From assembly GCF_055900595.2 (NCBI RefSeq), contig NZ_JBVWEU010000002.1: 64,000 bases of DNA, one strand, 5' to 3'. Made by a program: the position numbers and the translations under genes. This document shows positions 1-32,659 of the stretch, piece after piece; position 1 is the first letter of the stretch; every line of letters begins with the position of its first letter. The notes under the pieces were generated by a model. It was not told the origin of the DNA. It searched no databases and saw only the letters and a program-made list of their open reading frames with translations. The stretch comes from a plasmid.

Positions 1-3000
1 TATTATCAGCCAGCAGGCTCTCTCCGTTACGGCTGCCCTGCAGGGCCACGAACTGCGCATCCCCGCTGCCTTTCACACGGCCTTCACCACTGAATCCCCG
101 CAGCCCGTTTCCGTCATCCGTGGTCAGTGGGTTCAGCCAGATACCTGCTGACTTGCCGTTACGGTCAAACGCCGGCAGTGCCACATACGGCTGCGGATAT
201 TTGCGCCCCGGTGCAATAAACCGTGCAGGACTGTCTCCCCCGGCCAGCCCCGCCTGACGAAGAACGGCACGGCCTGCCGCCACGTCCCGCAGCTCCCGCG
301 CCGTACTGAACAGCCGCTCTGCATTCATGACCTCCCGGTCCGGTTTCGGCTCAAACACATCGTGGGCCGTACCTTTCTGTACGGCATTGTTGATGGCATC
401 CGTCCAGCCCTGACGGTTATCGGTGTACACCTGCACATGCTGCTTCATACGCGACAGGGCCACGTAGGCTGACTCAAAGCCGGCCATCAGTTTCCGGTTA
501 CCTTCCGTGCCTTCAAGCGCGATGGCAAAGGTTTCACTTGCCCCCTGCGCACCGTGGGCGGTGATGGCATAAGCCAGGTCAATATGTTGCTCTGCCCGCT
601 CCTGACCGGGGCGAATCACCCGGGTCTGCTGTCCGTCCGACAGCGTGACACTGTCACCGGAAACCGCTGTCACCGTCCAGACGCTGTTGGCCACATAGCC
701 GCGCTCCCGATCACTCTTCGTGAAGCGCATCCGGTCACCGGTTCCCACCCGGATGGTGTCCGGGGTGTACAGTGTGACGCCTTCAGCCACCGCCTCCCGG
801 GGCGAAATCAGCCGCGTGTTACCTTCCGCATCCTGCAGGGTTATCAGCCCGTCATCCTTACTGATACCGGCAATCCGGTGATACGCATTATCCACCAGGA
901 CAAGTGCGTCCCGATGTGTCTCCCAGGTGGAGAGACGACGCAGTTCTCCGTCACGTATATTCGCTGTGTTCAGGACAGGCACCATGACCTGCTCTTTGCC
1001 CAGCTCACCGGCCTTTTCCCGTGCATCATGAATCATGCTGTTCAGTACGCGCCGGTCCTCATTCAGGTGTGTGACAATCAGCGTCTGCTCCCGTGCTTCC
1101 GGTGTCCTGCCGGTATAGTCGCGGACAATGGCTTCATACAGTGTCATGGGGATATCCGGGAAAGCCTCGCCTTTCAGCATCGCCTTCTGCTGCGCTTCTG
1201 CCAGTTTCGCTTCCTGGCTGTGACTGAACTCCGTCACGGAGTGCTCCGGTGCCCATGCGCCCTCCAGACGTGGCACCTGAGACGGTTTCACGCTCTCAAG
1301 CCCGGACAGTGCCCTTTCCACATCCCGGTTAATCAGGCTGTATACCGCCTCCCGCAGTTCCGGCGTCTGACGCACAATCTCCTTCATGATGACCACATCG
1401 GCAGCACTGCGCGTCTGCTGGAGACGGAAAGGCTGACCGGGCGCGATGGCCTGCAGCTGGTCCGTGTCACCGCTGGCCACAGCCCGACCGCCACCGGCCG
1501 CAATCAGGGCGTATGCCCGTGCCATGTCGGTATTGCCCACCATTGAGCTCTCATCGAGCAGGAACAGCGTGTTGCTGAAATCCGGCGTTTCTCCGCTGCG
1601 CTGCTGCATCTGCGTGTCATGCAGAAAGGACGCCAGTGTCTGTGCATCCACGCCGGCGCTGCGCATCTCCCCGACCGCACGGTGCGTGGGGCCCAGCCCA
1701 ACGACACGGGGACGCTCACTCTCCGGCAGCATGTTCACGGCTGACATCACCGCCCGGAACTGTGTGGTCTTACCCACGCCGGCATAGCCCTGCACCACCG
1801 TGAAACGGTCGGACGTTTCCAGTATCATGCGGGTGGCGGCACGCTGTCCTGATGTCAGTTTCTCCATGAGTTCGCCAGGTACTCTCTCCATCAGCGGCGT
1901 GACCGCCTCCTTACCTTCGAGAATATGGCGAAGAATGCTCTTTTCTGCCTCATACGACGCACGGGAAACCAGCAGGCCTGTGCCATAGCCTTTTGCCACA
2001 TCCACATACAGTAAATCACCGCGTTTTATCTGCGCATTGATTTCCCCTCCCAGGTCGATAAAACTGGTTCCTTCTGCAGCAAACGACTTCGCCTCTGTCA
2101 GCAGGTCCACCATGCTGAAGGCCAGGTTTTTACTTTCCAGCACAGGAAGGGCCAGATGAATAGCCTGCTGTGCCGGCGTGTGAAGCCCGGCTTTCTGCAG
2201 ACTGATAGCGGTTTCCAGCAATGTCTCACCGGCACGCGCCTTTATCTGCTCAGAAACCACCGTAAAGGAGGGATGACGGGCAAGTTTTTCCGCAGTACGG
2301 GTTTCATCCAGTGAAGAATACAGCCGGACATCACGACCGCTGCGGGCCAGACCGTTCAGGGTGGCGTTGTCCATTGCCATCTGTGTGACGGAGGCAAAAA
2401 CCTTCGCACTGTCGCTGACGGAATGCCCGGGCGTTTCCACCCAGCCGTTCTCCAGCTTCAGTGCCGTGAACGGTGAATCAGCCACAGGCAGGGTGGCCGG
2501 TTCAGCCCGCCCCGGCACAACAACCGTCATCGCATCTTCACTGACGGATGCCACCTGCAGGCGGTCACCGCCGGAGACGCGGAGTCCGGGAATTTTCCCT
2601 GTCACCCTCAGACGCTCGCCGTCTGCCACCGGCATTTTTTCCGGCCGGAACAGCGACCAGCTGCTGTCCAGAGAAGAAATACGCACCACCTGCGTTTCAC
2701 CCTGCGCATCCCGCAGGGTCAGGCTGTGACTCTGCGCCGTCACCCGGTCTATCACATAGCGGTCATGACTGCGTGTCTCCGGGTTCCACTGCTCCATCAC
2801 CATTCCCGGGCGGTACATATCCCGCAGATAACGGCTCCGGCTGTCCAGCCAGACCGGTGACAGTGCCGTCATGGTCACCTCCTGATGTCCGAGCACGCCC
2901 TGTGTTTTCAGCTCACTGCGAATGGCCTGTGTCAGTATGGCCTGTTCCCGTACCCCGCTGACCTGTGCCACGCTCTCTTCTCCGGCTTTCACGCTGGCCG

Positions 3001-4762
3001 CAAAATCTCCTGCCAGCCGGGCATAGCGGACATTACGGTCCGGTTCACTGATGATGGTGGCCGGTCGCTGTTCTCCCCCCTGCCAGCGATATGTGTTCAC
3101 CCCGGCATCCTTCATGGCCATCAGCGCACTGCCTGTACCGGTTCGCTGCCCGCTGTCGGTTATCAGGACCTGTACGTTATGACGTGCGGCACCGTCCAGC
3201 AGGGTTAACGTCTCTTTCAGGGAGAGTTTTTCGCCCTGGTCAACGATAACAGTACTGCCCGGCGTGAAGGCCATGCCTTCCAGCAACTGACGACGTCCGG
3301 TTATCAGCTCACCGGACAGCCGTTCATCCTGCTTCAGGTTCATCTGCGAGCGACGGTCAGCAGCGATAATCTGCACTTCCCGCCCCTGCTCCCGGGCCAT
3401 CATGACCAGTTCAGCCACCCGCTCACGCTGCCCGGCTGCACCGCCCTGCCCGGACACAATGGCCAGCGACGGACGGTCCTGTGCCAGAACACTGACCGCA
3501 TCGCTGTAACCAGCCGTCCGGGGGACACTTTTCTCCGGATGTACGGTCACCCGGTTCTGTTTCATGATGTCACGACTGAGTGCCCGGACGGACAGCTCAT
3601 CGAGCACATGAATTCCTGATGCGAACAGCCCCTTCTCACGGTCGAGGGGGATAAGCTGCTCACGACTGATGGTCTCATCGATACCGGCGCGTGCCCGTTC
3701 AATCACACCATTTTCCGGCGGCAGTATACCGACCGTTCTGGCCAGCACGTCCGTGTACGTAAACTGCACTTTTCGTTCACTTAATCCGGCAATCGCCTGT
3801 GTCACCGCCTGCTGCACATCCGGCCCCTCCTGTGAAACAGCCCCGGGCGCCTGCGTGCGGGTCTCCGCACGCTGATCCGCCGCGTCACGATATGCCCGGA
3901 TGTCGAACCCGGTTTCCTTCAGCGTCTGCATCCATTCAGCCATTCTGACTTCAGGATCGACGTGCTGTTTGGATTTTCGCGTATCCAGTGCCGCCACATC
4001 CCGGGATTTCAGCGAGGCATCTTCCCCGACGGCCTCCCGGATTGCCTGTGAGCGTCCGGAAAAGGCCTCCACCGGTACGCCCGGCATCTCCCACATACCG
4101 TGCTTACCCACCACTTCGGTTTCATAGCCCAGCGCCTCAACCTGCTCTTTCAGTTTTTCCCGGTAGAGCCTGCCAAAGGCAATCTGATTAGCGTACACAT
4201 TCTCAATGAACCCCGTTTTCCCCACTTTGTCACTGCTCAGTGTCTTCCATTCGCCGTTATGCTGCGTGACATTAGCCACCACCGCATGCGTGTGTAACTG
4301 TGGTTCCTGATCGCGACTGGTGTCGTGGTTAAACAGTGCCATCACCAGATTACCGGTCAGCACCGTTTCTGACTGTCCGTCCGTCATCACCCGTGTGGAG
4401 GCCAGCGCCTCCACCTGACGAACAGCAAAGTCCACGGCCTGGTTATGTGCATCAATCAGGCGCTTATCGCCACCTAACATGGCCATCATGGAGACACTTT
4501 TGGGGGCGGAGAAGGTCAGGTCGTAGCCGGGACGATGCCTGTTACTGCCATCCTGCATGCGGCTTAGATCCGCTCCGTCCGGCAGCCTTCCCTCCAGAAG
4601 ACGGGTAAAAACATCCTTATCGACACTGCCCTGCAGTCCCAGCTGTTCAGCCCCCCTGCCGGCCCAGCGTTCTCCCATGCTGCCCAGCACATAGTAATTA
4701 TCCTTGTCGGTATAATAGTTACCGGCACTTCCGGCCGATCTGACCTGCGCGATACTCATCAT
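1..4762 (-). CDS. traI: TraI relaxase/helicase, N-terminal ~1587 codons; 3' end lies beyond window start
   Basis: Not in ORF track because no stop in window. Manual reverse-complement translation from 4762 gives [27 protein letters not shown], matching my memory of the F TraI N-terminus. Frame must be open to position 2, since no stop-terminated minus ORF is reported. ATG overlaps the traD stop (ATGA at 4760-4764). Confidence 0.9.
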   Translation of the reverse strand, partial: MMSIAQVRSAGSAGNYYTDKDNYYVLGSMGERWAGRGAEQLGLQGSVDKDVFTRLLEGRLPDGADLSRMQDGSNRHRPGYDLTFSAPKSVSMMAMLGGDKRLIDAHNQAVDFAVRQVEALASTRVMTDGQSETVLTGNLVMALFNHDTSRDQEPQLHTHAVVANVTQHNGEWKTLSSDKVGKTGFIENVYANQIAFGRLYREKLKEQVEALGYETEVVGKHGMWEMPGVPVEAFSGRSQAIREAVGEDASLKSRDVAALDTRKSKQHVDPEVRMAEWMQTLKETGFDIRAYRDAADQRAETRTQAPGAVSQEGPDVQQAVTQAIAGLSERKVQFTYTDVLARTVGILPPENGVIERARAGIDETISREQLIPLDREKGLFASGIHVLDELSVRALSRDIMKQNRVTVHPEKSVPRTAGYSDAVSVLAQDRPSLAIVSGQGGAAGQRERVAELVMMAREQGREVQIIAADRRSQMNLKQDERLSGELITGRRQLLEGMAFTPGSTVIVDQGEKLSLKETLTLLDGAARHNVQVLITDSGQRTGTGSALMAMKDAGVNTYRWQGGEQRPATIISEPDRNVRYARLAGDFAASVKAGEESVAQVSGVREQAILTQAIRSELKTQGVLGHQEVTMTALSPVWLDSRSRYLRDMYRPGMVMEQWNPETRSHDRYVIDRVTAQSHSLTLRDAQGETQVVRISSLDSSWSLFRPEKMPVADGERLRVTGKIPGLRVSGGDRLQVASVSEDAMTVVVPGRAEPATLPVADSPFTALKLENGWVETPGHSVSDSAKVFASVTQMAMDNATLNGLARSGRDVRLYSSLDETRTAEKLARHPSFTVVSEQIKARAGETLLETAISLQKAGLHTPAQQAIHLALPVLESKNLAFSMVDLLTEAKSFAAEGTSFIDLGGEINAQIKRGDLLYVDVAKGYGTGLLVSRASYEAEKSILRHILEGKEAVTPLMERVPGELMEKLTSGQRAATRMILETSDRFTVVQGYAGVGKTTQFRAVMSAVNMLPESERPRVVGLGPTHRAVGEMRSAGVDAQTLASFLHDTQMQQRSGETPDFSNTLFLLDESSMVGNTDMARAYALIAAGGGRAVASGDTDQLQAIAPGQPFRLQQTRSAADVVIMKEIVRQTPELREAVYSLINRDVERALSGLESVKPSQVPRLEGAWAPEHSVTEFSHSQEAKLAEAQQKAMLKGEAFPDIPMTLYEAIVRDYTGRTPEAREQTLIVTHLNEDRRVLNSMIHDAREKAGELGKEQVMVPVLNTANIRDGELRRLSTWETHRDALVLVDNAYHRIAGISKDDGLITLQDAEGNTRLISPREAVAEGVTLYTPDTIRVGTGDRMRFTKSDRERGYVANSVWTVTAVSGDSVTLSDGQQTRVIRPGQERAEQHIDLAYAITAHGAQGASETFAIALEGTEGNRKLMAGFESAYVALSRMKQHVQVYTDNRQGWTDAINNAVQKGTAHDVFEPKPDREVMNAERLFSTARELRDVAAGRAVLRQAGLAGGDSPARFIAPGRKYPQPYVALPAFDRNGKSAGIWLNPLTTDDGNGLRGFSGEGRVKGSGDAQFVALQGSRNGESLLADN

Positions 4763-6924
4763 CAGAAATCATCTCCCGGCTCAACATCCTCCCCGCGCTC
4801 CCGGTGCACATTAATGTTCACCTCTTCACGACGCTGCATCTGCTGCTGGATGTCCGGATGATTTTCCTGTTGCCATGCCTCATAAGCGGCCATATCCACC
4901 ACTTCACCGGATTCACTGATCCCGGGTGGCAGTTGCTGTTCCATCTCTTCTTCCGGTTTCATTTTCAGCTCCTGCTCGATCCCCCCTGCCGGAACATTCA
5001 CACCTGAATCTGACTTCTTATCGTTGATGGCAGGAGACACCGGCTGTTGCGGCTGTTGCGGCTGTTCAGCCTGAGTCACGTCTTCTCCGGAAACAACTTC
5101 CGGCACATCCGGTTCGAAGAGGCTGGCCATCTGACGACCTTCTGCTTCCCTTGCGGCAAGTACGGCACTCAGACGGTTCTCCATTTCCGGGTTGATGTCA
5201 CGCGGAATAAACTCCGGAGCGACCTTCGGACGTGCCTGATATTTCAGTGAGAGTTTTACTGCCGGATACGGTCCGGGCAGGGTGACATAACAGGTCAAAT
5301 CCGGCAGAGACTGAATGTCAGAATAACTGACCAGCGTCTGGCGCTCCATATCCTTACCGGTCGATACCCCGTCACGTACCGGATCAGCACCGTAGGAGTA
5401 CTGCTCGCTGGCTTTCAGGTGCTCTTTCTCACCAATCTCACCGGCAGCGAACTCTGCAATCTTATGGCTGGGAGAACGGAAAAAGGCACGGGTGTTCATG
5501 ACGTCAAACAGCGTGGCAGCCGCTTTCTCACCGTAGATATCTTCCAGCTGGGCATAGGACTGGATACCAAACACATAACAGCCACCGAACTTACGGGCTT
5601 CCGGCAGGATCTCCACCAGGTCCGGCAGTTTGTGTAACGTGGGTAGCTCATCACAGAAAAACCACACACGACGGTTACGGTTTTCTCCCATTGCCAGCAG
5701 ACCACGAATGGCAATGGACAGCCACATGGAGATCACCGGCTTCAGGGAGGCATGGGTGTCGGCATTCGACGAGATAAACAGCCAGCCGTTTTTCTGATCT
5801 TCCCGGACACCCCGCATCCAGTCACGGATGGTAAAAGACTCACCGTTATGCTCAATCCCCTGCAGGTAACGGATGGCTTTCACGTAGTTGGTCAGCACAG
5901 CACGGATGGAAATCGCCGTTTTCTCAATTTTCTCTTCCACCAGGTTGGCCGCCGGTGAATTACGCAGGAAGGTACGCAGTTTTTCGATTTTGATGGAAAG
6001 CAGTGTGTCCACCAGTTTGCTGTAGCTGCGGTTGGGGTCATTACGCATCAGGTACGCCGCTTCCGCAAAAATGGTACGTCCTGAACCCTGCCAGAACGGG
6101 TCCTCTTTTGTGCCCATCGGGATCAGGGTATTTGCCGTATTATCAAAATCCGGCTGTGTCAGACACTCCTTCCATAAATCCCAGGCGGCACAGCGGGCAT
6201 CCAGCGGATTCAGGATCTTATCGATGGAGGGATCATAGTAACTTTTAACAAATTCCCCTGAACGGTCATAAATCACCACCATATCACCGCGCTGACGGGC
6301 GTAGTTGGCCAGACGACGGATAACTTCCGACTTACCGGCCCCGACCGTGCCGTGCAGACAGAAGTTCTGGATTTCAGAATCCCGGATAATCGGCAGGTCG
6401 CCAATCCGGATATCGGAGTCCTTGCCGTCTTTTTTCAGCATCCGGGCAACGTCTTTCGGATTGTCTGTCAGCTGACGACCACCTGTGACTTCATTTTCGC
6501 TCTGTTGTTTACCCTGACGCCCCAGAATCCAGGAGACAACAAAGAAGGTAATCAGGCAAATAACCAGTGCCACAACTGTGGCCAGAACGAATGCGGACCA
6601 TAGCTGCTCTCCGCACCAGATCATATATTTATCATGCAGTACCTGAGCAGCATTCATCCGGAAGGTTTTGCCGTAATACTGGATCTCATAGACCGGCTGG
6701 GACTTGATTAAATCCCGCATGCCTTCCAGCGTGGTACACCACCAGTAAATACAGCCGTTCACAAACGTCTGCCAGCTTATTTTTACCCATAAAACCAGAC
6801 CAACGAGTATCCAGAAAAAAATAAACAGGCAGTAAAGCATGATATTGGCGATCTGGCTGAACATGCGGATACGCATGGACGCAATCTGACCGCCCTGGGT
6901 CATATCCTTTGCGTTAAAACTCAT
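4762..6924 (-). CDS. traD: TraD type IV coupling protein (720 aa)
   Basis: ORF track. Near-identical to recalled F TraD along its length, including the Walker A (GTVGAGKS), the QQP repeat tract and the C-terminal ...EDVEPGDDF. Confidence 0.95.
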
Positions 6925-7144
6925 GATGATATTCCGAAGAAAAAAAGTTAGTCGGACTGATTATTAATGATGAAAAGATTAATAACCGTTAAATTCCGGC
7001 TTCGCCGGCAACACTTCACGGTCGCACAAAGAATTTGCACAACCGCTCAGTGTTTTCATATTTATTTCGGAAACGCCGGGGAGAAATAAAATTTATTTTA
7101 TTTCTTTCCGGGGTTGGACAACGAGCAAAGCGAGGCGTCAGTCA

Positions 7145-7167
7145 GGAGGCCGGTCAGACCAGCCTCC
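7145..7167 (-). terminator. Stem-loop (GGAGGC..GCCTCC) just downstream of traT; possible terminator/attenuator ahead of traD
   Basis: Inverted repeat ggaggccggtcagaccagcctcc seen in sequence. No clear U-run, so weak. Confidence 0.3.
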
Positions 7168-7176
7168 GGAAGATAA

Positions 7177-7908
7177 TCAGAGAATATTTGCGATTGATTT
7201 GGCCAGCTGGTCTTCGAGAACAGGCTTCGCCTCTTCAAATTTCAGGTTAACCTTGTTCGCATTTGAGACCACACGGGTCTGGTATTTATGCTGGTTACCT
7301 GTTTCAGTACTGGTCTGAATTTTCGCACCTGATGTGCCCTGACGCAGGGCGGCTACATTGTCCGTTGTCACCGTTGCCTTAGTACGCTCTGCAATCTGCA
7401 CATCCGTGATCATGGTATAGTTCACATCTTCCACCATCGCATCTGCAGCCATACCCACCAGACCGGCAGCAAGGCCCACACCGAGTGTGGCACCGGCAGA
7501 ACTGGAATTATATCCGGTGATACCGGCACCTAACGCTGCACCAACTGCTGCGCCTTCATAACCACGGTTCAGCCATCCCTGAGACTCCCGCAGATCCATC
7601 TTATCGGCCTTCAGCACATTCGCCTGAATCCAGTAGTAGGCTTTATCCGGAGAAGTCACCACCTGATACCCTTTTGCTTTCACAGCATCAGCAATTTTGC
7701 CCTGCAGCCCACTCATGTCTTTATCAGACGTGTTTTTGATCTGCAGAAATACCGTGCGTTCGCTGGCGGGTTCAAGCCAGATGGTCTCACTCATCTGAGT
7801 CTTCACCTCAAGGTTACGCTTCTTGATTGCTGTGCTCATCGCACCACACCCTGAAACGGCCAGAGTGGAACTGACCAGTGCAACCATCATCAATTTTTTT
7901 GTTTTCAT
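7177..7908 (-). CDS. traT: TraT surface-exclusion outer-membrane lipoprotein (243 aa from [21 protein letters not shown])
   Basis: ORF 7177..8007 contains the recalled TraT sequence. True start taken at the internal Met preceding the lipoprotein signal peptide. Confidence 0.93.
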
Positions 7909-7939
7909 CAAATTACCTTTATTACAAACCACAGTTTTC

Positions 7940-8455
7940 TTATCGCCTGTCATCATAGTCCTGCCAACAAGTCCCAAAAGTATTTCCTGCTGAATCAAAT
8001 CCTCCATGCATAGCTAATCCTGTTGCCGGATTAGTACGATAAAAATCCACATAATCAAAATTCACATCATCAAAATCCAGATGCAAATCTTCATTAGTTT
8101 GTTCATTTACCTGAGATTGCATCCATTCTCTTACACTTACACAACCACTAATTCGCCTTAATTCGTATAGTGTACCAATGATAAAAACCATCAGGCTTAA
8201 TAACGGAGAGAGTAAGGAAGATACTGGCATCAGTATATACCAAACGCCTTTACTGAATTTAAACTCATCCGACACATGCCGTTTTTTTCGTATTTGAGAA
8301 AATAACCATATAAACAATCCCTGCCATAGTACAATAAAGCACAGGATAAAAACTGTTTCGGCACTCCCCCAATCAGCCAGATAACAGGCAATGAACTGTA
8401 TCACCGTCACCAGAGCAATATGAGCTAAATTTTTCATTATCATCTCCCCATACAA
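7940..8455 (-). CDS. traS: TraS entry-exclusion inner-membrane protein
   Basis: Hydrophobic ~170-aa ORF in the canonical position between traG and traT. Exact start uncertain (Met1, Met5 or Met7). Confidence 0.7.
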
Positions 8456-8457
8456 TA

Positions 8458-11280
8458 TTATTGCTTGTGCTTATCCTGATACTCCTTTGCTCTTTTCATC
8501 AGTTCCTGTGGACTGTCAGCCCCGGGCATTCTTTCCTGACCCGATTTTTCTTCATTATATTTATTATTCTGAGATAATGCCTCTGTTTTATGGTGATTTT
8601 GTAGTTCAGAATACTGTCTTCCTACAATATTTTCTTCGCCACGTATGCTGCTCTGAGTATCTCCGATATTGCCTCTGTATTCTGTGACCATATTATCAAC
8701 CTGATGTTTTACATCATTACGGATATTACTGTCCTGCGTTCTTTGCTCAATAATGGCCTGATGCCCCTGATGATCAGCAATAATATCCTGGCTGCCACCC
8801 CCCGAAGGTACGCTCTCCATTCCTTTACCGATGTCCCCACGGGATTCACGCCAGGCATTATCAACACCAGGCTGCACCTGTTCCTGAACAAAAGACCACG
8901 CCATAGCCCGACGGCGTTCTGCAATCTCCGGGGAACTGGTGTTTGTCAGAATAGCTTCGGCATCCTGCGGCGCGTGTTTCATCACATACTGTGCAAACTG
9001 TTGCGACAGGTCTTCACTCATCTGCCCACTCATGCTTTCAGTACGGGATGCCATTTCAGCATATTCATGGCTGCGGGTCATATTCGTCGTGTACTGGTCG
9101 TAACTCTGTTTTGCTGAGTTCAGGGCTGCAGACAGCTGGTCCACACGGGAATCGGCATTATTGTCCGTATGGCTGCCGGATTCACTGACCTTGCGACTGG
9201 TAAAGTAATCGCTGGCCTCTTTAAAGTCTTGTGTAGCCCTGGCATCGATATCATGGCGAGCATCATGGCTGGCCCGTGAACCACTGCTGGCCTGATGCGC
9301 ATCCTCATCACTCCAGTCAATACTTGCCCGACCACCACCTCTAACACCTACGCCACCACCAACACCAAGAATTTTAGGTTTAACCCCCCATTCAGCATGA
9401 GCATCGCCATACATCCCCGCAGAACCTCTCGTACTTCTTGATGCCAGTTCTCTTGTCGCCTGCTCATTACTGATATTATGCGCCTTCGCATAGCTTTCCA
9501 CTGCGCTGCGCATACGGCTGGCCATCATGGAGTCCTGTGCACTCATCGTGCTGTCAGCACCACCGGTGACAGAATCACTGCTCCCCCGGTTAGAACCAAA
9601 CTGACTGAGCGAGTTCCAGGCACTGGCAATACTGCTGCTGAACCCATGCAGGGCGCTTTCTGCTCTGTTCGACGCCTCCCGGGCCATTTCCTGTTGTGCC
9701 GCCGCAATCTGACGCGTTGCATTGATACCGACCGGTAAACGGGACATCGCCCCGCTCGCATCCATCACCATATTACCGTCACGGGTCTGTGTGGCGGTTG
9801 CGCCACTGCCGGTCTGGTACATCATCTGACCAAACGACGTGGTGCTGTTGGTGCTCCAGCTGAATCCGTTCACGTTTTCCGTCTGCATGTTGCCGTAGGA
9901 GTAATTACCGTCAACCACACTACCTGCCGCACTGGCAGTCGGGCTGATAGCAGAGGAAGCGAAATGGCTGTACACACTGGAAAATCCGGCCCCGAGTCCC
10001 CTGACCATCATCCAGGATAATGGCGGGATCATCATGGAAAGATACCCGGCAGTGGAAGCCAGATCGGAGTATTTCAGCTGTATCTGTGAAATTTCCGAGA
10101 GCACCACCGGTGCACCATTCTGCTTCGCATAAAATGTCATGGCGCTGTTCAGAATGGCGTACAACATTGGCCATGACTGCAACCACATCAGGGCAAACAC
10201 ATAGCCTTTCAGGACGGACAGCGTCAGTTTGTTGAAGACAGCCGCCAGTACCAGAAGCGGGAAAATACCGATGGCGATCCCCGTCAGGATGGTCTGCGTC
10301 ATGGGCAGTGTCCGCATCGCCACATGACCGATGGAGACATGTGCCAGACGTTGCTTCTCCATCGATGACGTGGTGGCCAGATTCACCAGGCTGGCTGAAT
10401 CACCATTACGCGCGGCATAACTGGTGATCCCCTCCTTCAGCGCATTGATGGTGACATTCTGGCGGATGATCTGGCTGGCTGATTTACTTGAGCCATAGAA
10501 GTAACTGTAACTGTCGCCAATCAGCGTACTGAACAACAGGTTCGGATCAGGGCGTCCACCAAATAGCTGCTGGGCATAATAATGCCAGGTTTTTCCGCCA
10601 CTCTGTGTATCCAGATTCAGCTTGTCTTTCAGCGAAACCGACGCGTCCTTACAGGTCACGAAATTATTATTGCTGTCATAAACGCCCCGTAGCGGACTGG
10701 GGCGGGAAAAAATCAGCGTGTAGGGATCAGCGGAGGCCATCAGCTCCTCCAGCGTGTATTTGTGGTTCAGGTAAATATCCCCCATCACGCAGTTCTGCAC
10801 ATAATCCTGGAAAAGATTGGCGATTTCCGGATTGCGGGACAAAAAGTCGGTGCTTTTTGATACCAGTTCTGCGCCAAACAGCATCCCCGTTTTGCTGTAG
10901 GTGACACTGTCCGGTTGCGTGAAGATCATCTCGTAACTGGCCACCATTGCATGCCCGATACGGGTCGTCAGTGAAAGTGGCATCGCCAGTCCGACCGGCA
11001 CATTATCCACCCGGTGAACTTTGACCAGGTCACTGTTATCAATAATCTGCACCGATGTGCGGACATTAACCAGCAGGCTGATAAGCACAAACACGGCCAC
11101 CCAGCCCAGCAAATCCATCACGTTGTGCCGCTGTACCCACATTACGGCCACCGCGAGAACAGACAATGTGAGCGCAATTTTTTCAATGGAATCCCACGTC
11201 CGGGTCCCCATAAAGGCGGCAATGGCATTCAGGTTATTCCGCAACCACTCACCACCGGCAATCACATAAACTTCATTCAC
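8458..11280 (-). CDS. traG: TraG mating-pair stabilisation / pilus assembly protein (940 aa)
   Basis: Size and position (F TraG is ~938 aa). N-terminal polytopic membrane domain plus large periplasmic C-terminal domain. Confidence 0.93.
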   Translation of the reverse strand: MNEVYVIAGGEWLRNNLNAIAAFMGTRTWDSIEKIALTLSVLAVAVMWVQRHNVMDLLGWVAVFVLISLLVNVRTSVQIIDNSDLVKVHRVDNVPVGLAMPLSLTTRIGHAMVASYEMIFTQPDSVTYSKTGMLFGAELVSKSTDFLSRNPEIANLFQDYVQNCVMGDIYLNHKYTLEELMASADPYTLIFSRPSPLRGVYDSNNNFVTCKDASVSLKDKLNLDTQSGGKTWHYYAQQLFGGRPDPNLLFSTLIGDSYSYFYGSSKSASQIIRQNVTINALKEGITSYAARNGDSASLVNLATTSSMEKQRLAHVSIGHVAMRTLPMTQTILTGIAIGIFPLLVLAAVFNKLTLSVLKGYVFALMWLQSWPMLYAILNSAMTFYAKQNGAPVVLSEISQIQLKYSDLASTAGYLSMMIPPLSWMMVRGLGAGFSSVYSHFASSAISPTASAAGSVVDGNYSYGNMQTENVNGFSWSTNSTTSFGQMMYQTGSGATATQTRDGNMVMDASGAMSRLPVGINATRQIAAAQQEMAREASNRAESALHGFSSSIASAWNSLSQFGSNRGSSDSVTGGADSTMSAQDSMMASRMRSAVESYAKAHNISNEQATRELASRSTRGSAGMYGDAHAEWGVKPKILGVGGGVGVRGGGRASIDWSDEDAHQASSGSRASHDARHDIDARATQDFKEASDYFTSRKVSESGSHTDNNADSRVDQLSAALNSAKQSYDQYTTNMTRSHEYAEMASRTESMSGQMSEDLSQQFAQYVMKHAPQDAEAILTNTSSPEIAERRRAMAWSFVQEQVQPGVDNAWRESRGDIGKGMESVPSGGGSQDIIADHQGHQAIIEQRTQDSNIRNDVKHQVDNMVTEYRGNIGDTQSSIRGEENIVGRQYSELQNHHKTEALSQNNKYNEEKSGQERMPGADSPQELMKRAKEYQDKHKQ

Positions 11281-12653
11281 AGCGTGCTCCCTCCGAAGTG
11301 ATAGTTGTTCTGGTAACGACTGAGCATGCGGGCGGAAAGCTGCTGACGCATGTAGCTCATCTGACGATCGACGACCAGCAGCGCATCCTGCTGTACCTGC
11401 ACCTGTGACTGAAACGCCGCAATCTGCCGGGTGGCATCATTCATGTTGTCGTTAATATGTTCGATAACTGCTTCGTCATAATTTCCTGTGGCCACCATCG
11501 CCCGGGCCTGCTGTATCAGCTCCTGAATGTACTGCAGCAGGATGTCGTAACCGATATAGTCCGTCAGCTGGTAAATCATACTGTTGGAAACACCGAGCAT
11601 TTGCGGGTCAACCAGGTATTTGAAGACGGGGATGGTGGTACTGGAAATAAAGCCTTTTTCCTTGTCATCCAGAGGCGTGTCACTGACCGCCTTGTTCTGA
11701 ATGCTGGCCAGAAGTTTAGTAATCTGAGACTTCAGTGCATTATCCCGGCTGATGGTCACCGGTGTGTCTGCCACCACTTTCAGGCATTTATCAGAATCGT
11801 TGCAGTGATAAATTTTTGCTGTGCCGCCTTCCATCATGACCCGGATAATTGAGCGGTCAGTGGTTCTGGCTGACAAGGGTGTGATTTCGCCGTTAGGACC
11901 AAACACCAGTGAGCCGGTCAACGTCATCACAAACTCTTTCAGCTCTTTGTTGCCGTCAAACATTCTGTTTTTGGAAAGCGCATTCCACATGATGTTGATG
12001 TTTTTGGTCACCCGCTCCTTATCCTTGTCGCTGGCTTTATCCCTGACACTGTCAGATTTCCCGCCAACGGTACATCCCTGCCGGGAAGCCGCCCAGTCAG
12101 CAAAAATATTGCTCTCACCGGCAATGTCCTGACAGACTTTCTGCTGGGACACCTGCGTCCGGGGGAAAAGCCCGCCGATAATCCCCTGTGCCGCCTGGCA
12201 GGAACTGAGGTTCATACTGTTAATGTCGCTTGCCATTTTCTGCAGGAAGTCTTTTGCGGTTTTGATTTCCGGCACCGTTGTCTGCAGGGCAAGGTCAAAA
12301 AAGTAACCGGCAGCATTGCTCATAATCTGCTTAACAAAACGCTGCAGCTGCTCGCCATTAATAAAACTGAACGAGCCGAGATAAGCGTCGATGCCGCCAC
12401 ATCCGGCATTGATATCCGGCAGCGTCATGGAAATCAGCTGAACATTTTTGACCTGAGTACGGGCATACAGGGAGCCACCGTAAGCATAACCGGCGGCCTG
12501 CCCCTGCCAGACGCCCGGCTGTGTGGTATTGGAGGCGAAGCCCAGCTTGTTAAAGAACTGATTCATGTCGCTGTTCACATCCGCTGACGCTGCGGGTGTG
12601 ACCGTCAGTAAAGCAGCACAAAGAACCAGAAGAGGTTTAATGCGTGGCATCAT
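11277..12653 (-). CDS. traH: TraH pilus assembly protein (458 aa, signal peptide)
   Basis: Size identical to F TraH. Synteny traH then traG, with 4-nt overlap. Confidence 0.93.
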   Translation of the reverse strand: MMPRIKPLLVLCAALLTVTPAASADVNSDMNQFFNKLGFASNTTQPGVWQGQAAGYAYGGSLYARTQVKNVQLISMTLPDINAGCGGIDAYLGSFSFINGEQLQRFVKQIMSNAAGYFFDLALQTTVPEIKTAKDFLQKMASDINSMNLSSCQAAQGIIGGLFPRTQVSQQKVCQDIAGESNIFADWAASRQGCTVGGKSDSVRDKASDKDKERVTKNINIMWNALSKNRMFDGNKELKEFVMTLTGSLVFGPNGEITPLSARTTDRSIIRVMMEGGTAKIYHCNDSDKCLKVVADTPVTISRDNALKSQITKLLASIQNKAVSDTPLDDKEKGFISSTTIPVFKYLVDPQMLGVSNSMIYQLTDYIGYDILLQYIQELIQQARAMVATGNYDEAVIEHINDNMNDATRQIAAFQSQVQVQQDALLVVDRQMSYMRQQLSARMLSRYQNNYHFGGSTL

Positions 12654-13045
12654 TCTTGCCCTCCCTTAATTTGTTCTCCCGGCGCATACGACATTTCAGC
12701 AGGAATATCCCGATATTTCCGTCCAGTCCTGCGGCTGTAATATATTTCAGACACCGAAATCCATCCCACAATTGCCCCCACAAAAAACACAACAGAAACA
12801 GAAAAGGTAAGGCACAGCGAAACGACAATTTCTACAGGGCTGGCGGGATAAAAAAGCCCCTGATGGATAAAGGGGATATTCAGGCTGACGATTATTCCCG
12901 TCGCGATGCCGGATATTCCGGCAATGAGTAACACCACCTGCTTATTTCGCACCTTTTTTTCCTCCGTACATCTGCAGAACGGTATCCATCCGCGCCATAA
13001 AACCGGCGGCATCCGTTGCCCCCTGTAAAAGCGGTAATGCCTCAA
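12650..13045 (-). CDS. trbF: Small membrane protein in the TrbF/TrbJ position (131-aa ORF)
   Basis: Position between trbB and traH. Size close to F TrbF (~126 aa). Overlaps the 3' end of trbB. No separate trbJ ORF of 60 aa or more was seen. Confidence 0.5.
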   Translation of the reverse strand: MRHYRFYRGQRMPPVLWRGWIPFCRCTEEKKVRNKQVVLLIAGISGIATGIIVSLNIPFIHQGLFYPASPVEIVVSLCLTFSVSVVFFVGAIVGWISVSEIYYSRRTGRKYRDIPAEMSYAPGEQIKGGQE

Positions 13046-13487
13046 GCGTGTTGACGTTGACCAGGAAGGTGGTCGGTGTGGCCACCGGGATATTCGGGAA
13101 GAAGGTCTGCATCACGTCCGGTGGCACCGGTAATGCTTCCGGAAAGGCGGTATCCCCCTGACCATCCAGGGTGTAGGGAAAAACGGAAAAGCCGTACTGC
13201 TGTGCCAACTGCTTCAGTACCGGGTCAAACTGGTGACAGTAAGGGCAATGCCCCTGCATAAACAGCACCACCTTCCAGTCGGCCAGGTTAACCTGCCTGC
13301 CGTTGCTGAGGCGGAACCAGCGGGGGGCCGGCTTTTCTGTCCTGGCTGACGTGTCTGCTGCCGGTTGTGCAGGCTGCGCGGCCATACCCTGCGGATTCCA
13401 GAGTCGCTCTATTTCATCCCGGGTGGAGGCCTGCACACCTGTGGCCATCATCAACAAAATGACCGGCAGTAAGTTAGTGAGAGACAT
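12942..13487 (-). CDS. trbB: TrbB periplasmic thioredoxin-fold disulfide isomerase (181 aa)
   Basis: CxxC motif (GHCPYCHQ), signal peptide, size equals F TrbB. Confidence 0.87.
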   Translation of the reverse strand: MSLTNLLPVILLMMATGVQASTRDEIERLWNPQGMAAQPAQPAADTSARTEKPAPRWFRLSNGRQVNLADWKVVLFMQGHCPYCHQFDPVLKQLAQQYGFSVFPYTLDGQGDTAFPEALPVPPDVMQTFFPNIPVATPTTFLVNVNTLEALPLLQGATDAAGFMARMDTVLQMYGGKKGAK

Positions 13488-13758
13488 GTCCGCCCTCCTG
13501 CTGCTCTGCCATCATGGCCTGTTGCCTGGCTTCCAGTGCCTCACGCTCTTCCCGGCTGACACGGGCAATCCATGCATCCAGCACCTGGTATGCGCCGAAC
13601 AGCACAAGGATGGCCGCAATCAACTCCGCCAGAAAAAAAGCCATCCAGGGTTTGCTGTAAACAAGACGGGCGACGATATGAAACCAGACACCCAGGGAAA
13701 ATACCCACATTCCCGTAATATCAAGCCGGGGTAAAGAGAATCTGCGTTTACTTATCAT
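13474..13758 (-). CDS. traQ: TraQ pilin chaperone (94 aa)
   Basis: Size equals F TraQ. Membrane helix plus charged C-terminus. Synteny. Confidence 0.85.
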   Translation of the reverse strand: MISKRRFSLPRLDITGMWVFSLGVWFHIVARLVYSKPWMAFFLAELIAAILVLFGAYQVLDAWIARVSREEREALEARQQAMMAEQQEGGHVSH

Positions 13759-13876
13759 GTTAAACTCCGGTTATTATTTACATGAGAGTATTTATGTCTG
13801 TAATATTCGCGTTTGTGTGATATTAATCAGATCAACCTCATTATTTTGTATGGTTTTTATTACCGTTTTATATGAC

Positions 13877-14224
13877 TTAGCCTGTCATAAGCCCCCTTAT
13901 AAAAAACCACATCACTCCGGACCATACTGATGACAACATAATACAGATAAATATTCTTCTGAACCCGTCGAAGCTCGTAACGTTCGGTAATGAGCCAATA
14001 ACCATTGGAACAACCATTGCTGCGCCCTGATTCATAATTGCACCACACAGAAACCAGAGACTGGCAGTCAGCACATATAAACACGCGATATTAATAACAA
14101 GGAAAACCAGTGAGCTCAGGAGAAACATTTTCCTGTCATTACGCTCAGAAAAGAAATAACCGGCAATAATGACAAATATTAACAGAACAACACCTGTAAA
14201 CAGTTTCAAATAATCTTCACTCAT
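13877..14224 (-). CDS. trbA: TrbA inner-membrane protein (115 aa)
   Basis: Size equals F TrbA. Hydrophobic. Position between traF and traQ. Confidence 0.75.
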   Translation of the reverse strand: MSEDYLKLFTGVVLLIFVIIAGYFFSERNDRKMFLLSSLVFLVINIACLYVLTASLWFLCGAIMNQGAAMVVPMVIGSLPNVTSFDGFRRIFICIMLSSVWSGVMWFFIRGLMTG

Positions 14225-14239
14225 AAATCAAATCCGCGA

Positions 14240-14983
14240 TTAAAAATTGGGTTTAAAATCTTCAGAAACGTTCAGGAATTGTTTTGCCAGGTCGTCCTGC
14301 GAAATAAAGCCGTATGATAACGGGCGAACACTGCCCTGTTTCGGGTCAACCAGCATCATGGCCGGGAAATATTTCACGCCGAGGCGCTGCGCCTGCCCCT
14401 GGTCAGTCCGGGAATCCGGCAACAGCGGATTAATCACACCATCCACGGAAACGGGAATAACACTCAGACCATAGGTATCCCTGAAGCCATTAATGACCTG
14501 CGCCAGCTGCCCGTCGATGGGGTCCTGCCCCCGGTAAAAGAACATGATGCCGTAGTGTTCAGCCAGTTTCGCAATGGCCTGTCGCTGCTGCACCTGGTCT
14601 GCCGCCAGCTGGTTCCGGACCGTGCCGTTGTAATGGCTGTACTGCAGGTTATAGTCCAGTTCGGGATGCGCCAGCATGGCTTTTTTGGCGCTCATGGTGA
14701 AAAGCCCGGCCTGCTGAGTCCAGTAATTCTGCAGCCGGAAATATTTCACAAAATTATCCACGCCGGGATACAGAATGGCTTCGTACAGCGCCCGCTTTGT
14801 TGCCGTCTGCAGTGCGGCCAGTTTCTGCATAATGTCCGGCTCCTGACGGGGGGCTGCAGGTACTGGTTTATTTTCTTTTTCCTTCGGATTTATTTTCTCG
14901 TTATACCACTGCCAGCCTGCATCTTTTCCTGACGCCGGAAAAATAAAGCAGCAGAGTAACAGTGGCAGTAATGCTTTATTCAT
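14240..14983 (-). CDS. traF: TraF pilus assembly protein, thioredoxin-like fold (247 aa from MNKALLPLLL)
   Basis: ORF 14240..15013. Start trimmed to the Met giving the F TraF length and a signal peptide. Confidence 0.9.
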   Translation of the reverse strand: MNKALLPLLLCCFIFPASGKDAGWQWYNEKINPKEKENKPVPAAPRQEPDIMQKLAALQTATKRALYEAILYPGVDNFVKYFRLQNYWTQQAGLFTMSAKKAMLAHPELDYNLQYSHYNGTVRNQLAADQVQQRQAIAKLAEHYGIMFFYRGQDPIDGQLAQVINGFRDTYGLSVIPVSVDGVINPLLPDSRTDQGQAQRLGVKYFPAMMLVDPKQGSVRPLSYGFISQDDLAKQFLNVSEDFKPNF

Positions 14984-15203
14984 CTTCATTCCTTTCATCA
15001 CTTTTTCTTTCATCAGGTTTCTGCAGGTCAGTCAGGGCAGAAAAACAAAAATACAGAATAAACAGGAGCACACCGGAGTAAAAAATAACGAAAGCAGCAG
15101 CAAGTATCTCACCTGCAGTGGTTTCTTTTACCGTATCCCACGACCAGATAATTACCGGGGAAATGACAATCGCTGTAATCAAAAGCCGGATGCGTATTCT
15201 CAT
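14976..15203 (-). CDS. trbE: TrbE small membrane protein, probably 5'-truncated (75 aa versus ~86 aa in F)
   Basis: Hydrophobic small ORF overlapping the traF start. Its ATG directly abuts the IS-type terminal motif at 15203, and an in-frame stop lies 4 codons upstream. Confidence 0.6.
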   Translation of the reverse strand: MRIRIRLLITAIVISPVIIWSWDTVKETTAGEILAAAFVIFYSGVLLFILYFCFSALTDLQKPDERKSDERNEDE

Positions 15204-15290
15204 GAAAGGAGATCACTCAATAACTTCCATCGAGATCGGGTAATAACGGCGTTTTTCAAGGTAGTTGTCGCCTTTTGTAATAAAATTACG

Positions 15291-16196
15291 TTATGCCGCT
15301 TCTTTTTCTGGATTCAGATAAACTGCCTGAATGAGTTCCCAGTCACGCAACTGTTTGCTCCAGCGCTCAGGATGACGTTTGCGAGCTTCGCGATAAACTT
15401 TTTTTCTGGCTTCCAGTATTTGTGCGTCAATTCCGCGATGGCGTTCATCCGGAGTAACATACTTAATACCGCTGTGCTTGTGTTCCAGGTTGTACCATCG
15501 CGTGAACTTGCTTAACCAACTTCTGGCTTCATCTATGGTTCGAAAACCATTCTCTGGCCACCATGGACAATACTTAATCGTCCGGAAGAGCGATTCGGAA
15601 TAAGGGTTATCATTGCTGACCCGGGGACGGGAATAAGAACTTAATACGCCAAGCGCGTACATTTTTGCCAGTAACGTACAACTGCGCATTGGTCCTCCGT
15701 TATCAGAATGAAGCACGAGATTGCGGGATGAACATTTTTCATTCCATACAGCACGTTGAAGCAGTTCTGCCGCATACTGCCCAGATTCTTTCGTAAATAC
15801 TTCGGCAGCAATAATTTTTCGGCTATAAATATCGACGATCATATAGAGATAAAAATGCTGCCCCTTAACCCACGATGGGATATAACTAATATCCCAGCTC
15901 CACACCTGGTTGGGGGCTACAGCTTTGAGTACTTCAGGCCGCTTATATTGGTGTTCACGGGTTCTCCTTGTCAGTTGGTTAGCTGATTTTAATACGCGAT
16001 AAAAAGTTGATTCTGACGCGATATAAACCCCTCTGTCGGCAAGAGTCGGAACAATAATATTCGGAGACAATGATGCAAACTCCGGAGAATTGCATACATC
16101 AAGTATTCTTAATCTTTCTGTTTCTGACAGTTTATTCCCCGGGGTACGCCTTGATGCACCTGGTCTCTGATCTGTATGAACCACACCACCCTGCAT
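15291..16196 (-). CDS. IS3-family transposase OrfB (DDE/rve integrase core, 301 aa)
   Basis: Motifs WSWDISYIP, HSDNGGPM and YSESLFRTIKY (E-x7-K) are typical of IS3-family / retroviral-integrase catalytic domains. Confidence 0.85.
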   Translation of the reverse strand: MQGGVVHTDQRPGASRRTPGNKLSETERLRILDVCNSPEFASLSPNIIVPTLADRGVYIASESTFYRVLKSANQLTRRTREHQYKRPEVLKAVAPNQVWSWDISYIPSWVKGQHFYLYMIVDIYSRKIIAAEVFTKESGQYAAELLQRAVWNEKCSSRNLVLHSDNGGPMRSCTLLAKMYALGVLSSYSRPRVSNDNPYSESLFRTIKYCPWWPENGFRTIDEARSWLSKFTRWYNLEHKHSGIKYVTPDERHRGIDAQILEARKKVYREARKRHPERWSKQLRDWELIQAVYLNPEKEAA

Positions 16197-16315
16197 CCAA
16201 CGTTGAAGTGTTCTGACTGAAATACCAATACACTGGCAGGCTTGTGTTTTTCTCGCTCCTGAACTGACAGCCTCGCTGACCAGATTAATAATCTTCTGCC
16301 GCTCTGGAAGAGGAG

Positions 16316-16861
16316 TCAGCCTTCCTCGCTGTTGTCCCAGAGGGCATTGAACTTTTCCCTTAACATCAAAAGAGCAGCTGCTTCCGCCAGAGCTTTATCT
16401 TTACGGAGAAGTTCTTTTTCCAGTTCCCGTAACTGGGTCTTTGCTTCGCGTAATTCTTTATCAGCACGGCGACTTTCTGCCATTTTCATTTCATGAGCCT
16501 GAATGGATATAGCTCTCCATTCTTTAACTTGCTCAACAAATAACCCCATTCTCCGACAATAATCAGCCAGTTCCATTTCAGATAATGTTGCAGTTTCAAT
16601 TACAACAGAAAATCGTCGCTCCGGTGTCCATTCATTTCCATCGACAGAAGATATTTTTTCATTTTCAGGTAACAGGCCTTGTTGCACCAGTTCAAGTCTC
16701 CATCTTGCTATTACTGAAGGGCTCAGGTCCAGTTTACGAGCAATATGCCGTATGGACCAACTATAAGGTGGTAATAACCAGGTAACACCTTGTTCTTTTA
16801 TATCAATTGGTACTGCATGTGCGGGCATAGTCTCTCTCCTGTGTAAAAATCTAGGCGACAA
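16316..16861 (-). CDS. IS3-family transposase OrfA (HTH DNA-binding, leucine-zipper-like C-terminus)
   Basis: Immediately upstream of orfB in a different frame. The 120-nt gap between orfA stop and the first orfB ATG may indicate a frameshift-fusion arrangement or decay. Confidence 0.7.
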   Translation of the reverse strand: MSPRFLHRRETMPAHAVPIDIKEQGVTWLLPPYSWSIRHIARKLDLSPSVIARWRLELVQQGLLPENEKISSVDGNEWTPERRFSVVIETATLSEMELADYCRRMGLFVEQVKEWRAISIQAHEMKMAESRRADKELREAKTQLRELEKELLRKDKALAEAAALLMLREKFNALWDNSEEG

Positions 16862-17020
16862 CTATGCTGACACAGGGGGATAACATTTGAACAGATCGCT
16901 GAATAACATCGATGGAGATCACTTTTGACTCATTTTGTTATTCAGTGATCTCCATCAATGTTATTGGAACTTCACAGGTGTGTTGATCTGTATCTTTTGC
17001 CATTCCGGTAAAGGATACCT

Positions 17021-18562
17021 ATGCCAACAGTTCCAATTTCTATGAGAAAACTTAAAGAAATTCTTAGGCTTAAATACGGTGTTGGACTCAGCCATCGACA
17101 AATTGGTCGTAGTCTTGCAATCTCCCCTTCCGTTGTATCCAGATATGCTAATCGGGCGGCTCAACTTGGCATAAAGCAGTGGCCCTTACCTACAGGATGG
17201 GATGATACAAAACTAAAACATGCGTTCCTTCAGACCCAGGTTAAGATGAAGAAGCACTCTCTGCCTGACTGGGCTACAGTACACCGGGAACTGCGTAATA
17301 AATGCGTGACGCTGCAGCTACTCTGGGAAGAATACTGTGAGCGTAATCCAGGCGGTTTTTACAGCTATAACCATTACTGCCGGATGTACCGTGAATGGCT
17401 CAAAACCACTTCACCATCAATGCGTCAGGTACATAAAGCTGGCGAAAAACTTTTCGTTGATTACTGTGGACCTACCGTTGGCGTTACCGACCCTGAGACC
17501 GGAGAAATAAGAACTGCTCAGGTCATCGTAGCTGTTCTCGGGGCATCAAGTTACACATGGGCAGAGGCCACCTGGTCTCAGCAGCTTGAAGACTGGGTGA
17601 TGAGTCATGTTCGCTGCTTCCAGTGGTTGGGTGGCGTTCCTGAACTTGTTGTTCCGGACAATCTGAAAAGCGCCACATCCAGGGCATGTAAGTATGATCC
17701 TGACGTTAACCCTACCTACCAGCAGATGCTTGAGCATTATAATGTCGCAGTTTTGCCTGCGCGGCCACGTAAACCGAAAGATAAAGCCAAAGCTGAAGTT
17801 GGCGTTCAGGTTGTTGAACGCTGGATCATGGCCCGAATCAGGCATGAGATCTTCTACAGCCTTGCATCGCTTAATCAGCGCATTCGGGAGTTGCTGGAAA
17901 GACTGAATAACAAAATAATGCAGAAGTTGGGTTATTCACGTGCAGAACTCTTCATCCAGCTTGATAAACCCGCACTGAAGCCTCTTCCTGAAGCCAGTTA
18001 CAGTTACACCCTGGTGAAGAAAGTCAGAGTTCATGCCGATTACCACGTGGAAATCGACAAACATTACTACTCGGTTCCATGTTCGCTGTTAGGCCAGCAA
18101 CTGGAAGCATGGATCTCCGGAGAACTGGTAAGACTCTTCAATCAGGGGCAGGAGGTTGCTGTGCACCCGCGCAAGCGTACTTATGGCTACAGTACCCGCA
18201 ACGAGCACATGCCTGAAGCTCATCGACAGCATGCCACCTGGACGCCAGAGCGTCTTCTGGAATGGGCGGGGCACATAGGCAGTGAAACTCATAGTTATGT
18301 GCTTCATATACTGAACTCTCGTCCACATCCGGAACAAAGCTATCGCTTCTGCCTTGGACTCCTGAACCTTCATAAAAAATACAGTAAAGCCAGACTTAAT
18401 GCAGCATGTGCAAGAGCTCTGAAAACAAAGGTATGGCGTCTGTCAGGTATTAAATCGATCCTGGAAAAAGGTCTGGATAAACAACCTGTTCAGGATCCAA
18501 AACCAGATCTGTTATCCACGATGGAACACGAAAACGTACGCGGCAGTGAGTATTACCACTGA
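17021..18562 (+). CDS. istA: IS21-family transposase IstA (513 aa)
   Basis: N-terminal HTH plus DDE core typical of IstA. Followed 11 nt later by istB. Confidence 0.9.
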   Translation: MPTVPISMRKLKEILRLKYGVGLSHRQIGRSLAISPSVVSRYANRAAQLGIKQWPLPTGWDDTKLKHAFLQTQVKMKKHSLPDWATVHRELRNKCVTLQLLWEEYCERNPGGFYSYNHYCRMYREWLKTTSPSMRQVHKAGEKLFVDYCGPTVGVTDPETGEIRTAQVIVAVLGASSYTWAEATWSQQLEDWVMSHVRCFQWLGGVPELVVPDNLKSATSRACKYDPDVNPTYQQMLEHYNVAVLPARPRKPKDKAKAEVGVQVVERWIMARIRHEIFYSLASLNQRIRELLERLNNKIMQKLGYSRAELFIQLDKPALKPLPEASYSYTLVKKVRVHADYHVEIDKHYYSVPCSLLGQQLEAWISGELVRLFNQGQEVAVHPRKRTYGYSTRNEHMPEAHRQHATWTPERLLEWAGHIGSETHSYVLHILNSRPHPEQSYRFCLGLLNLHKKYSKARLNAACARALKTKVWRLSGIKSILEKGLDKQPVQDPKPDLLSTMEHENVRGSEYYH

Positions 18563-18573
18563 TACGGGATCCA

Positions 18574-19323
18574 ATGATGAATCATCTTTACGAACAACTG
18601 ACCGCACTTAAACTCACCGGCTTCCGTGATGCGCTTAAAAAGCAACTTGCTCAGCCGGGCACATACCAGGAGCTGGGCTTCGAAGAACGCCTGTCATTAC
18701 TGACAGCAGAAGAACTAACCTGCCGTGAAAACAGGAAGGCAGAGCGTCTGATCAAACATGCACGGTTCAGACTTAATGCTGAGTTATCAAAGCTGGATTA
18801 TCGTAACAATAGAGGGCTGGACAGGGCCCTCATCCGTTCACTCAGTCAGGGAAACTGGTTAACCCTGAAACAAAATATTTTACTGACCGGGGCCACCGGC
18901 AGCGGTAAAACGTTCCTGGCATGTGCACTTGGTCATAATGCCTGCCGACAGGGATACAAGGTCTACTATTATCGCCTTAAAGCGCTGATGGAACAGTGCT
19001 ATCAGGGGCATGCTGATGGAAGATACAGCAAACTTTTGACCAGGCTGAATAATAGCGATCTGCTGCTTCTGGATGACTGGGGGCTGGAACCTCTCTCATC
19101 AGAACAGCGTAGCGACCTGCTGGAAATAGTGGATCTGATGTACCAACGAGGCTCAATCATCGTAGTGAGCCAGTTGCCGGTGGAAAACTGGTACAAAATG
19201 ATCGGAGACTCCACACATGCGGATGCCATCCTAGATCGACTGGTTCATGGCAGTATCAAGATCGAACTTAAAGGAGAATCAATGCGGAAAATACAATCTC
19301 CGTTGACCGAAGGAGATCAGTGA
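18574..19323 (+). CDS. istB: IS21-family helper ATPase IstB (249 aa)
   Basis: Walker A LTGATGSGKTF and Walker B LLLLDDWG. DnaC-like AAA+ protein as in IS21 IstB. Confidence 0.9.
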   Translation: MMNHLYEQLTALKLTGFRDALKKQLAQPGTYQELGFEERLSLLTAEELTCRENRKAERLIKHARFRLNAELSKLDYRNNRGLDRALIRSLSQGNWLTLKQNILLTGATGSGKTFLACALGHNACRQGYKVYYYRLKALMEQCYQGHADGRYSKLLTRLNNSDLLLLDDWGLEPLSSEQRSDLLEIVDLMYQRGSIIVVSQLPVENWYKMIGDSTHADAILDRLVHGSIKIELKGESMRKIQSPLTEGDQ

Positions 19324-32312: not shown

Positions 32313-32333
32313 ATAACAATCCTGGTATCAGTT

Positions 32334-32645: not shown

Positions 32646-32659
32646 CGTTTTATTTCCTG

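Follow-up and report, generated by a model that had tools for sequence, protein, structure and literature searches.

Among conjugative plasmids related to F, does a short run of glutamine and proline codons near the 3' end of traD carry a function of its own, or is it a stretch whose length the coupling protein simply tolerates? The question was raised by a plasmid segment of 64,000 nucleotides (hereafter the window), where a sequence-only reading had noticed three tandem 9-bp repeats at 5041-5067. It described them as a minus-strand (QQP) tract in the C-terminal tail of TraD, of a kind that can expand or contract by slippage and differ between alleles.

The traD gene and its surroundings

The open reading frame at 4762..6924 on the minus strand encodes a protein of 720 aa, and its full-length family match, domain architecture and operon position identify it as F-type TraD, the type IV coupling protein. 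The NCBIfam model NF010254 covers residues 1-720 with 1655 bits (cut-off 1221), and TIGR02759 covers residues 8-577 with 834.7 bits (cut-off 521). Pfam places TraD_N at residues 32-128, TrwB_AAD_bind at 172-561 and TraG-D_C at 419-541. A Walker A motif (GTVGAGKS) is found at residues 192-199, and all of its residues but A196 are invariant in nine aligned TraDs. The gene is located between traT (7177..8007), upstream in the tra operon, and the 5' part of the relaxase/helicase gene traI (1..4762), which runs off the start of the window and is annotated as such in matching records. Both neighbours, as well as traG (8458-11280), are encoded on the minus strand like traD, and each of the three scores above its NCBIfam cut-off.

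The start of traI overlaps the stop codon of traD, an arrangement as in R100. In the record of F, a vapC/vapB toxin-antitoxin pair separates traD from traI (31958-32674), and a similar pair is found in pSLT. In this respect the window joins an F-type TraD tail to an R100-type traD/traI junction. No PLSDB record matches positions 1-20000 of the window better than 97% over 92% of the length, and the plasmid is therefore regarded as a mosaic IncF plasmid that is absent from PLSDB. The TraD protein itself has been encountered before. It is identical to the traD translation of a Salmonella record, NZ_CP130104, where it is named WP_052944470.1, and the same accession names the TraD of the E. coli record NZ_CP027439.

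Between the traD genes of the window and of NZ_CP130104 there are 24 differences in 2163 nucleotides, every one of them synonymous, a sign that TraD is under strong purifying selection outside the repeat. Elsewhere in the transfer region, amid the minus-strand tra operon, an ORF of 513 aa lies on the opposite strand (17021-18562, +). The best-matching plasmids annotate the istA/istB genes of the IS21-like ISEc12 at this place, and the ORF probably belongs to an insertion sequence located in this region.

A 9-bp tandem array in frame with traD

On the plus strand, positions 5041-5067 read cggctgttg cggctgttg cggctgttc. Tandem Repeats Finder (TRF) reported 2.9 copies of CGGCTGTTG at 5041..5066, with a period of 9, 100% matches and a score of 52. 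The minus strand, which is the coding strand, reads GAACAGCCG CAACAGCCG CAACAGCCG, that is, the codons GAA CAG CCG / CAA CAG CCG / CAA CAG CCG and the peptide EQP-QQP-QQP. Three in-frame units of 9 bp are thus present as first described, but the last base of the third unit deviates, which makes 2.9 identical copies rather than three. Likewise, two of the units are true QQP units, while the first in coding direction is EQP. The peptide extends from E620 to P628 (E-Q-P-Q-Q-P-Q-Q-P) of the 720-aa protein, which leaves 92 residues up to the C-terminus. The array keeps precisely to the codons of traD, since codon 620 starts at position 5067 and (6924-5067)/3 equals 619.

Chance does not account for the presence of the array. 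It is the sole perfect tandem array in the 64 kb with a period of at least 6 and at least 2.5 copies. In 200 dinucleotide-preserving shuffles, a match-run of at least 17 at any lag from 4 to 30 was never obtained, the largest run being 14. Analytically, about 8e-5 such arrays would be expected.

Several other repeats were noted in the window. At 44729-44919 there are 3.9 copies of a 43-bp tandem repeat (89% matches), each with the palindrome GGGACCGTGGTCCC. They adjoin, on the downstream side, two minus-strand ORFs (45011-47157; 323 and 391 aa). We take this array to resemble a short partition centromere of the sopC type adjoining sopAB; the sopC of F has 12 copies. The longest simple repeat of the window is (AAG)n with 11.7 copies at 42866-42900. 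The surrounding stretch is rich in G+C, and the overlapping ORFs that it contains on both strands look mechanical, with poly-K, poly-R, poly-S, poly-L and poly-F translations. TRF also reported 2.5 copies of 15 bp (86% matches) at 8042-8079, in or beside a traS-sized ORF upstream of traT, and 2.5 copies of 21 bp (80% matches) at 63745-63796, close to the end of the window.

Position of the tract in the TraD tail

Beyond the TIGR02759 core match, residues 577-720 (4765..5196, minus strand) make up a C-terminal domain or extension that is acidic (net charge -21) and rich in P/Q/E/S/G. Its residues 604-677 consist to 70% of P/Q/E/S/G/K/D and have a net charge of -13. The array is in frame inside this extension, as the sequence-only reading had placed it. 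In the alignment of the nine TraDs, together with their C-termini, four segments can be told apart. The first, conserved and located behind the ATPase domain (including LAAREAEG and LFEPD), is followed by a variable low-complexity stretch, then by conserved blocks (among them AGG.EQEL, LPPG, GE..DM.A and a W) and finally by a terminal motif. The QQP array is found within the variable stretch in the F, R100, pSLT and Citrobacter lineages. The TraDs of Klebsiella and Enterobacter have no QQP there, and instead encode a longer, non-repetitive stretch rich in Pro/Ala/Ser/Thr/Glu between the same conserved blocks.

The TraD C-terminal domain has been described as unstructured (PMC10939261, PMC3245843). 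Specific binding of TraM has been assigned to the last ~8-15 residues of the protein (PMC10939261, PMC3245843), and the last 15 residues (C15) represent a TraM-specific discrimination motif (PMC10939261). The effect of the C15 tail on transfer is 10^4-10^5-fold, whereas the remaining C-terminal domain contributes only about 10-30-fold (PMC10939261). In the window, the last 15 residues (4765..4809, minus strand) are identical to those of F TraD. The identity encompasses all 92 residues that follow the tract, including the end EPGDDF, so that TraM specificity of the F type would be expected. It had been proposed that the tail which bears the repeats mediates TraM contact in F. This is true of the tail according to the literature, but not of the tract itself, because the contact comes 92 residues after it; the tract forms part of a variable linker within this tail.

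Structural searches added little. An AlphaFold2 model built from the nine-sequence alignment was poor overall (mean pLDDT 45, pTM 0.29). Residues 603-677 were modelled as coil with a pLDDT of 24-27, but some parts of the ATPase domain score as low, and the model was therefore not used as evidence of disorder. No match was obtained when the last 145 residues of TraD were compared with the sequences of the PDB; the TraM-bound TraD peptide is shorter than the 20-residue minimum of the library.

Copy number among F-like plasmids

A megablast search using the last 639 bases of traD as a query retrieved 4122 plasmid records, as well as 3213 records from 2803 of 5426 complete E. coli genomes. From both rankings evenly spaced samples were drawn, consisting of 56 plasmid records and 58 E. 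coli records. Length differences relative to the window were exact multiples of 9 bp in 55/56 and 57/58 of these, respectively, or 112/114 combined. Judged by span, which is off by one unit for R100-type flanks that lack the DVP just upstream of the tract, the sampled alleles ranged from -2 to +17 units relative to the window. The window's own length was found in one of the 56 plasmid records and none of the 58 E. coli records. The most frequent class, which makes up about 20% of the sample, was one unit shorter (2 units). No allele with fewer than 2 units was present among the 114 sampled records. This absence could reflect a selective floor, or a low slippage rate of very short arrays.

Because of the deviation at R100-type flanks, the key counts were made on fetched sequences, where arrays of 2, 3, 6, 7, 8, 10, 11, 12, 13, 15 and 21 units were found. 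Two units are encoded by F, pMRGN1031, pEco15-2 and the Salmonella plasmid pST1539, and three by the window, NZ_CP027439 and NZ_CP130104. R100 has 10 units, pSLT 11, pF16EC0593-2 15 and pMRSN124611_p3 21. Arrays of 6, 7 and 15 units occur in three records that match the window at 100% over the 639-bp flanks, so that up to 12 units separate alleles which do not differ in their flanks. The expectation that copy number differs between TraD alleles is thereby borne out, both by the proposed comparison of F, R100 and pSLT (2, 10 and 11 units) and by the overall spread from 2 to 21; an identical number in all F-like alleles would have spoken against it. The count for F (EQP and QQP) agrees with the QPQQP given by Lang et al. 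2011, where the region comprises 5 Q/P residues in F and 23 in R1 (PMC3245843). The 3-unit allele of the window is short, rare and one unit above F.

Frame-breaking lengths were observed in two of the 114 sampled records, and separately in p62. CP026798 is longer by 62 bp and NZ_CP044149 by 152 bp; in the latter traD is split into two CDS. In plasmid p62 of E. coli 746 (NZ_CP023354, tract at 384-481) one base is missing, giving CACAGCCG instead of CAACAGCCG. This splits the array into 5+5 units and breaks the frame, and traD is unannotated in that record. The missing base reflects either a genuine pseudogene or a mistake of long-read assembly. Single-base changes, and not gains or losses of whole units, underlie the few cases in which the frame is broken. 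Assembly errors may account for some of the copy numbers found in public assemblies, and the tract is a spot where traD assemblies and annotations can err.

Origin of the length variation

Although a QQP unit can be written in 16 synonymous versions, every array keeps to one of them throughout. The unit is CAACAGCCG (CAA CAG CCG) between F-type and pSLT-type flanks, CAACAGCCA (CAA CAG CCA) between R100-type flanks, and CAGCAGCCA (CAG CAG CCA) in the Citrobacter plasmid pCFR-e790. Homogeneous arrays with lineage-specific codons fit concerted evolution by recent duplication and deletion in situ, rather than an anciently conserved peptide repeat.

Lengths also differ among plasmids of the pO165 type. 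Six of these (about 74-76 kb) agree at every position of 712 bp of flanking sequence, and yet carry 6, 7, 8, 10, 12 and 13 units. Three of them, NZ_CP027446, NZ_CP013028 and AP026762, which have 6, 12 and 13 units among them, differ by only ~0.05-0.1% in substitutions over about 20 kb. In all three the tra operon has decayed to a remnant of traS, traT, traD, a fragmented traI, traX and finO. The traD of pO165_JNE102603 (AP026762) shows an 11-bp gap relative to the window and is out of frame after about codon 123. In the other two plasmids traD is absent from the gene table, a table that omits pseudogenes. The array thus changes even where TraD cannot be under selection, so that the variation is mutational and selection is unnecessary to account for it. 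The spread of lengths in pO165-type plasmids points to a high mutability of the array.

Taken together, we consider it very probable that the array is an in-frame, slippage-prone 9-bp VNTR that provides a flexible and nearly neutral spacer in the TraD tail. It would represent a coding minisatellite inside the low-complexity C-terminal domain, with the Gln-Gln-Pro spacer linking a conserved helix behind the ATPase domain to the conserved C-terminal region, which ends in the TraM-binding tail. For short direct repeats without mismatches, slippage during replication is the textbook mechanism. Strand slippage at replication (or unequal recombination between units) would gain or lose whole units here because the units are perfect 9-bp direct repeats. 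Since the unit is a multiple of three, such changes would always keep the frame and alter the spacer by three residues at a time. A wide range of lengths would then be tolerated, and length as such is probably close to neutral. Of the proposal that the tract expands or contracts by slippage, the gain and loss of whole units is what the multiples of 9 bp bear out, and slippage is the mechanism we infer.

A different view of the same variation is adaptive tuning, in which the array acts as a contingency-like length switch under diversifying selection. Length would affect how far the TraM-binding tail reaches or how it moves, and thereby relaxosome docking, plasmid specificity, mobilisation of other plasmids or sensitivity to the RNA phage R17. 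It has been suggested that heterogeneity of the TraD C-terminus, including QQP length, is a possible basis of the different R17 sensitivity of F and R1, and phage resistance has been proposed as a driver of diversification (PMC3245843). The retention of the tract in the F, R100, pSLT and Citrobacter lineages despite diverged flanks, and the lack of alleles below 2 units in the 114 samples, are consistent with this speculation. Nevertheless, the arrays of pO165-type plasmids, with frameshifted traD and a decayed transfer operon, are equally broad (6-13 units), and self-transmission is attributed to F, R100 and pSLT alike, with 2, 10 and 11 units. Furthermore, once its last 15 residues are set aside, the C-terminal domain adds only about 10-30-fold to transfer (PMC10939261). 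We therefore regard adaptive tuning as unlikely. Slightly less likely still is its strongest form, a selected and fast-evolving length dial that would serve conjugative plasmids as a frame-preserving contingency locus, tuning relaxosome docking, cross-mobilisation of other plasmids or susceptibility to pilus-specific RNA phages. If length does modulate transfer or phage sensitivity, it would offer a simple, naturally occurring means of tuning how resistance plasmids spread.

Whole units could also be exchanged by RecA-dependent unequal recombination, between units or between plasmid copies, instead of by replication slippage. Arrays of up to 189 bp (21 units) offer some homology, and large jumps between near-identical plasmids, such as 6 versus 15 units with identical flanks, might be produced in this way. 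Most arrays are, however, far below the length of efficient RecA substrates. Both processes yield the same whole-unit changes and are not separated by sequence data; recombination of this kind is in our judgement a doubtful substitute for slippage.

That the 3-unit allele is an artefact, a longer array collapsed during assembly, is very improbable. The nearest relatives by flank identity do carry 6, 7 and 15 units, and the 3-unit length is as rare in the samples as given above (1/56 and 0/58). Against this, the same 3-unit array is shared by the independent records NZ_CP027439 and NZ_CP130104, both of which carry WP_052944470.1, the Salmonella protein being identical to that of the window, and the short allele is therefore not peculiar to the window assembly. 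In addition, the array of F is even shorter, and ordinary sequencing reads are long enough to cover arrays of 27-135 bp with ease.

Finally, it is hardly credible that the repeat serves an element of the other strand or an RNA (an antisense ORF, promoter, terminator or non-coding RNA): a mechanical plus-strand ORF of 67 aa with a TTG start (5047..5250) and one weak promoter-like site (4997-5024) are present, but the ORF is without a Pfam match, promoter-like sites are no more numerous than in shuffled sequence, terminator-like sites are in excess (2 against a shuffle mean of 0.3) but located outside the tract at 4924-4941 and 5330-5342, an Rfam search at permissive E-values gave no match near gathering score, and the repeat is in exact codon register with traD.

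Relation to known systems

The QQP motif and its variable length are already known. Lang et al. 2011 (Mol Microbiol 82:1071, Discussion and Fig. 8; PMC3245843) reported the motif as a region of F-like TraD that varies, and theirs was the only work on the tract retrieved by our literature search. The tract of the window is found in the same gene, with the same tripeptide and in the same position upstream of the TraM-interaction domain, and only the allele differs, being QPQQPQQP (3 units) here. Compared to F TraD (WP_000009350.1, 717 aa), the protein of the window is 99% identical and has one QQP unit more. The additions made here are small: the lineage-specific codon choice, the homogeneity of units at the DNA level, the range of 2-21 units and the variation in pseudogenised traD. 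Beyond bookkeeping the significance is slight, the window contributing one more allele of a published feature. Copy number does separate near-identical IncF plasmids, and as a fast-evolving marker it could aid fine-scale plasmid epidemiology.

The array has features in common with the simple-sequence contingency loci of bacterial pathogens, as both are tandem repeats in coding sequence, in the TraD array probably hypermutable ones, whose copy number varies among near-identical isolates. The on/off switching of expression by repeat number, through frameshift or altered promoter spacing, that characterises phase-variable contingency loci is absent from the TraD array, because a 9-bp unit in codon register keeps the frame. 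A looser parallel may be drawn with TonB, whose (Glu-Pro)n/(Lys-Pro)n region is a proline-rich spacer. By analogy, the QQP tract may be seen as a periodic, proline-containing low-complexity segment which, like that of TonB, links a membrane-anchored machine to a distal binding motif, although the two share no homology.
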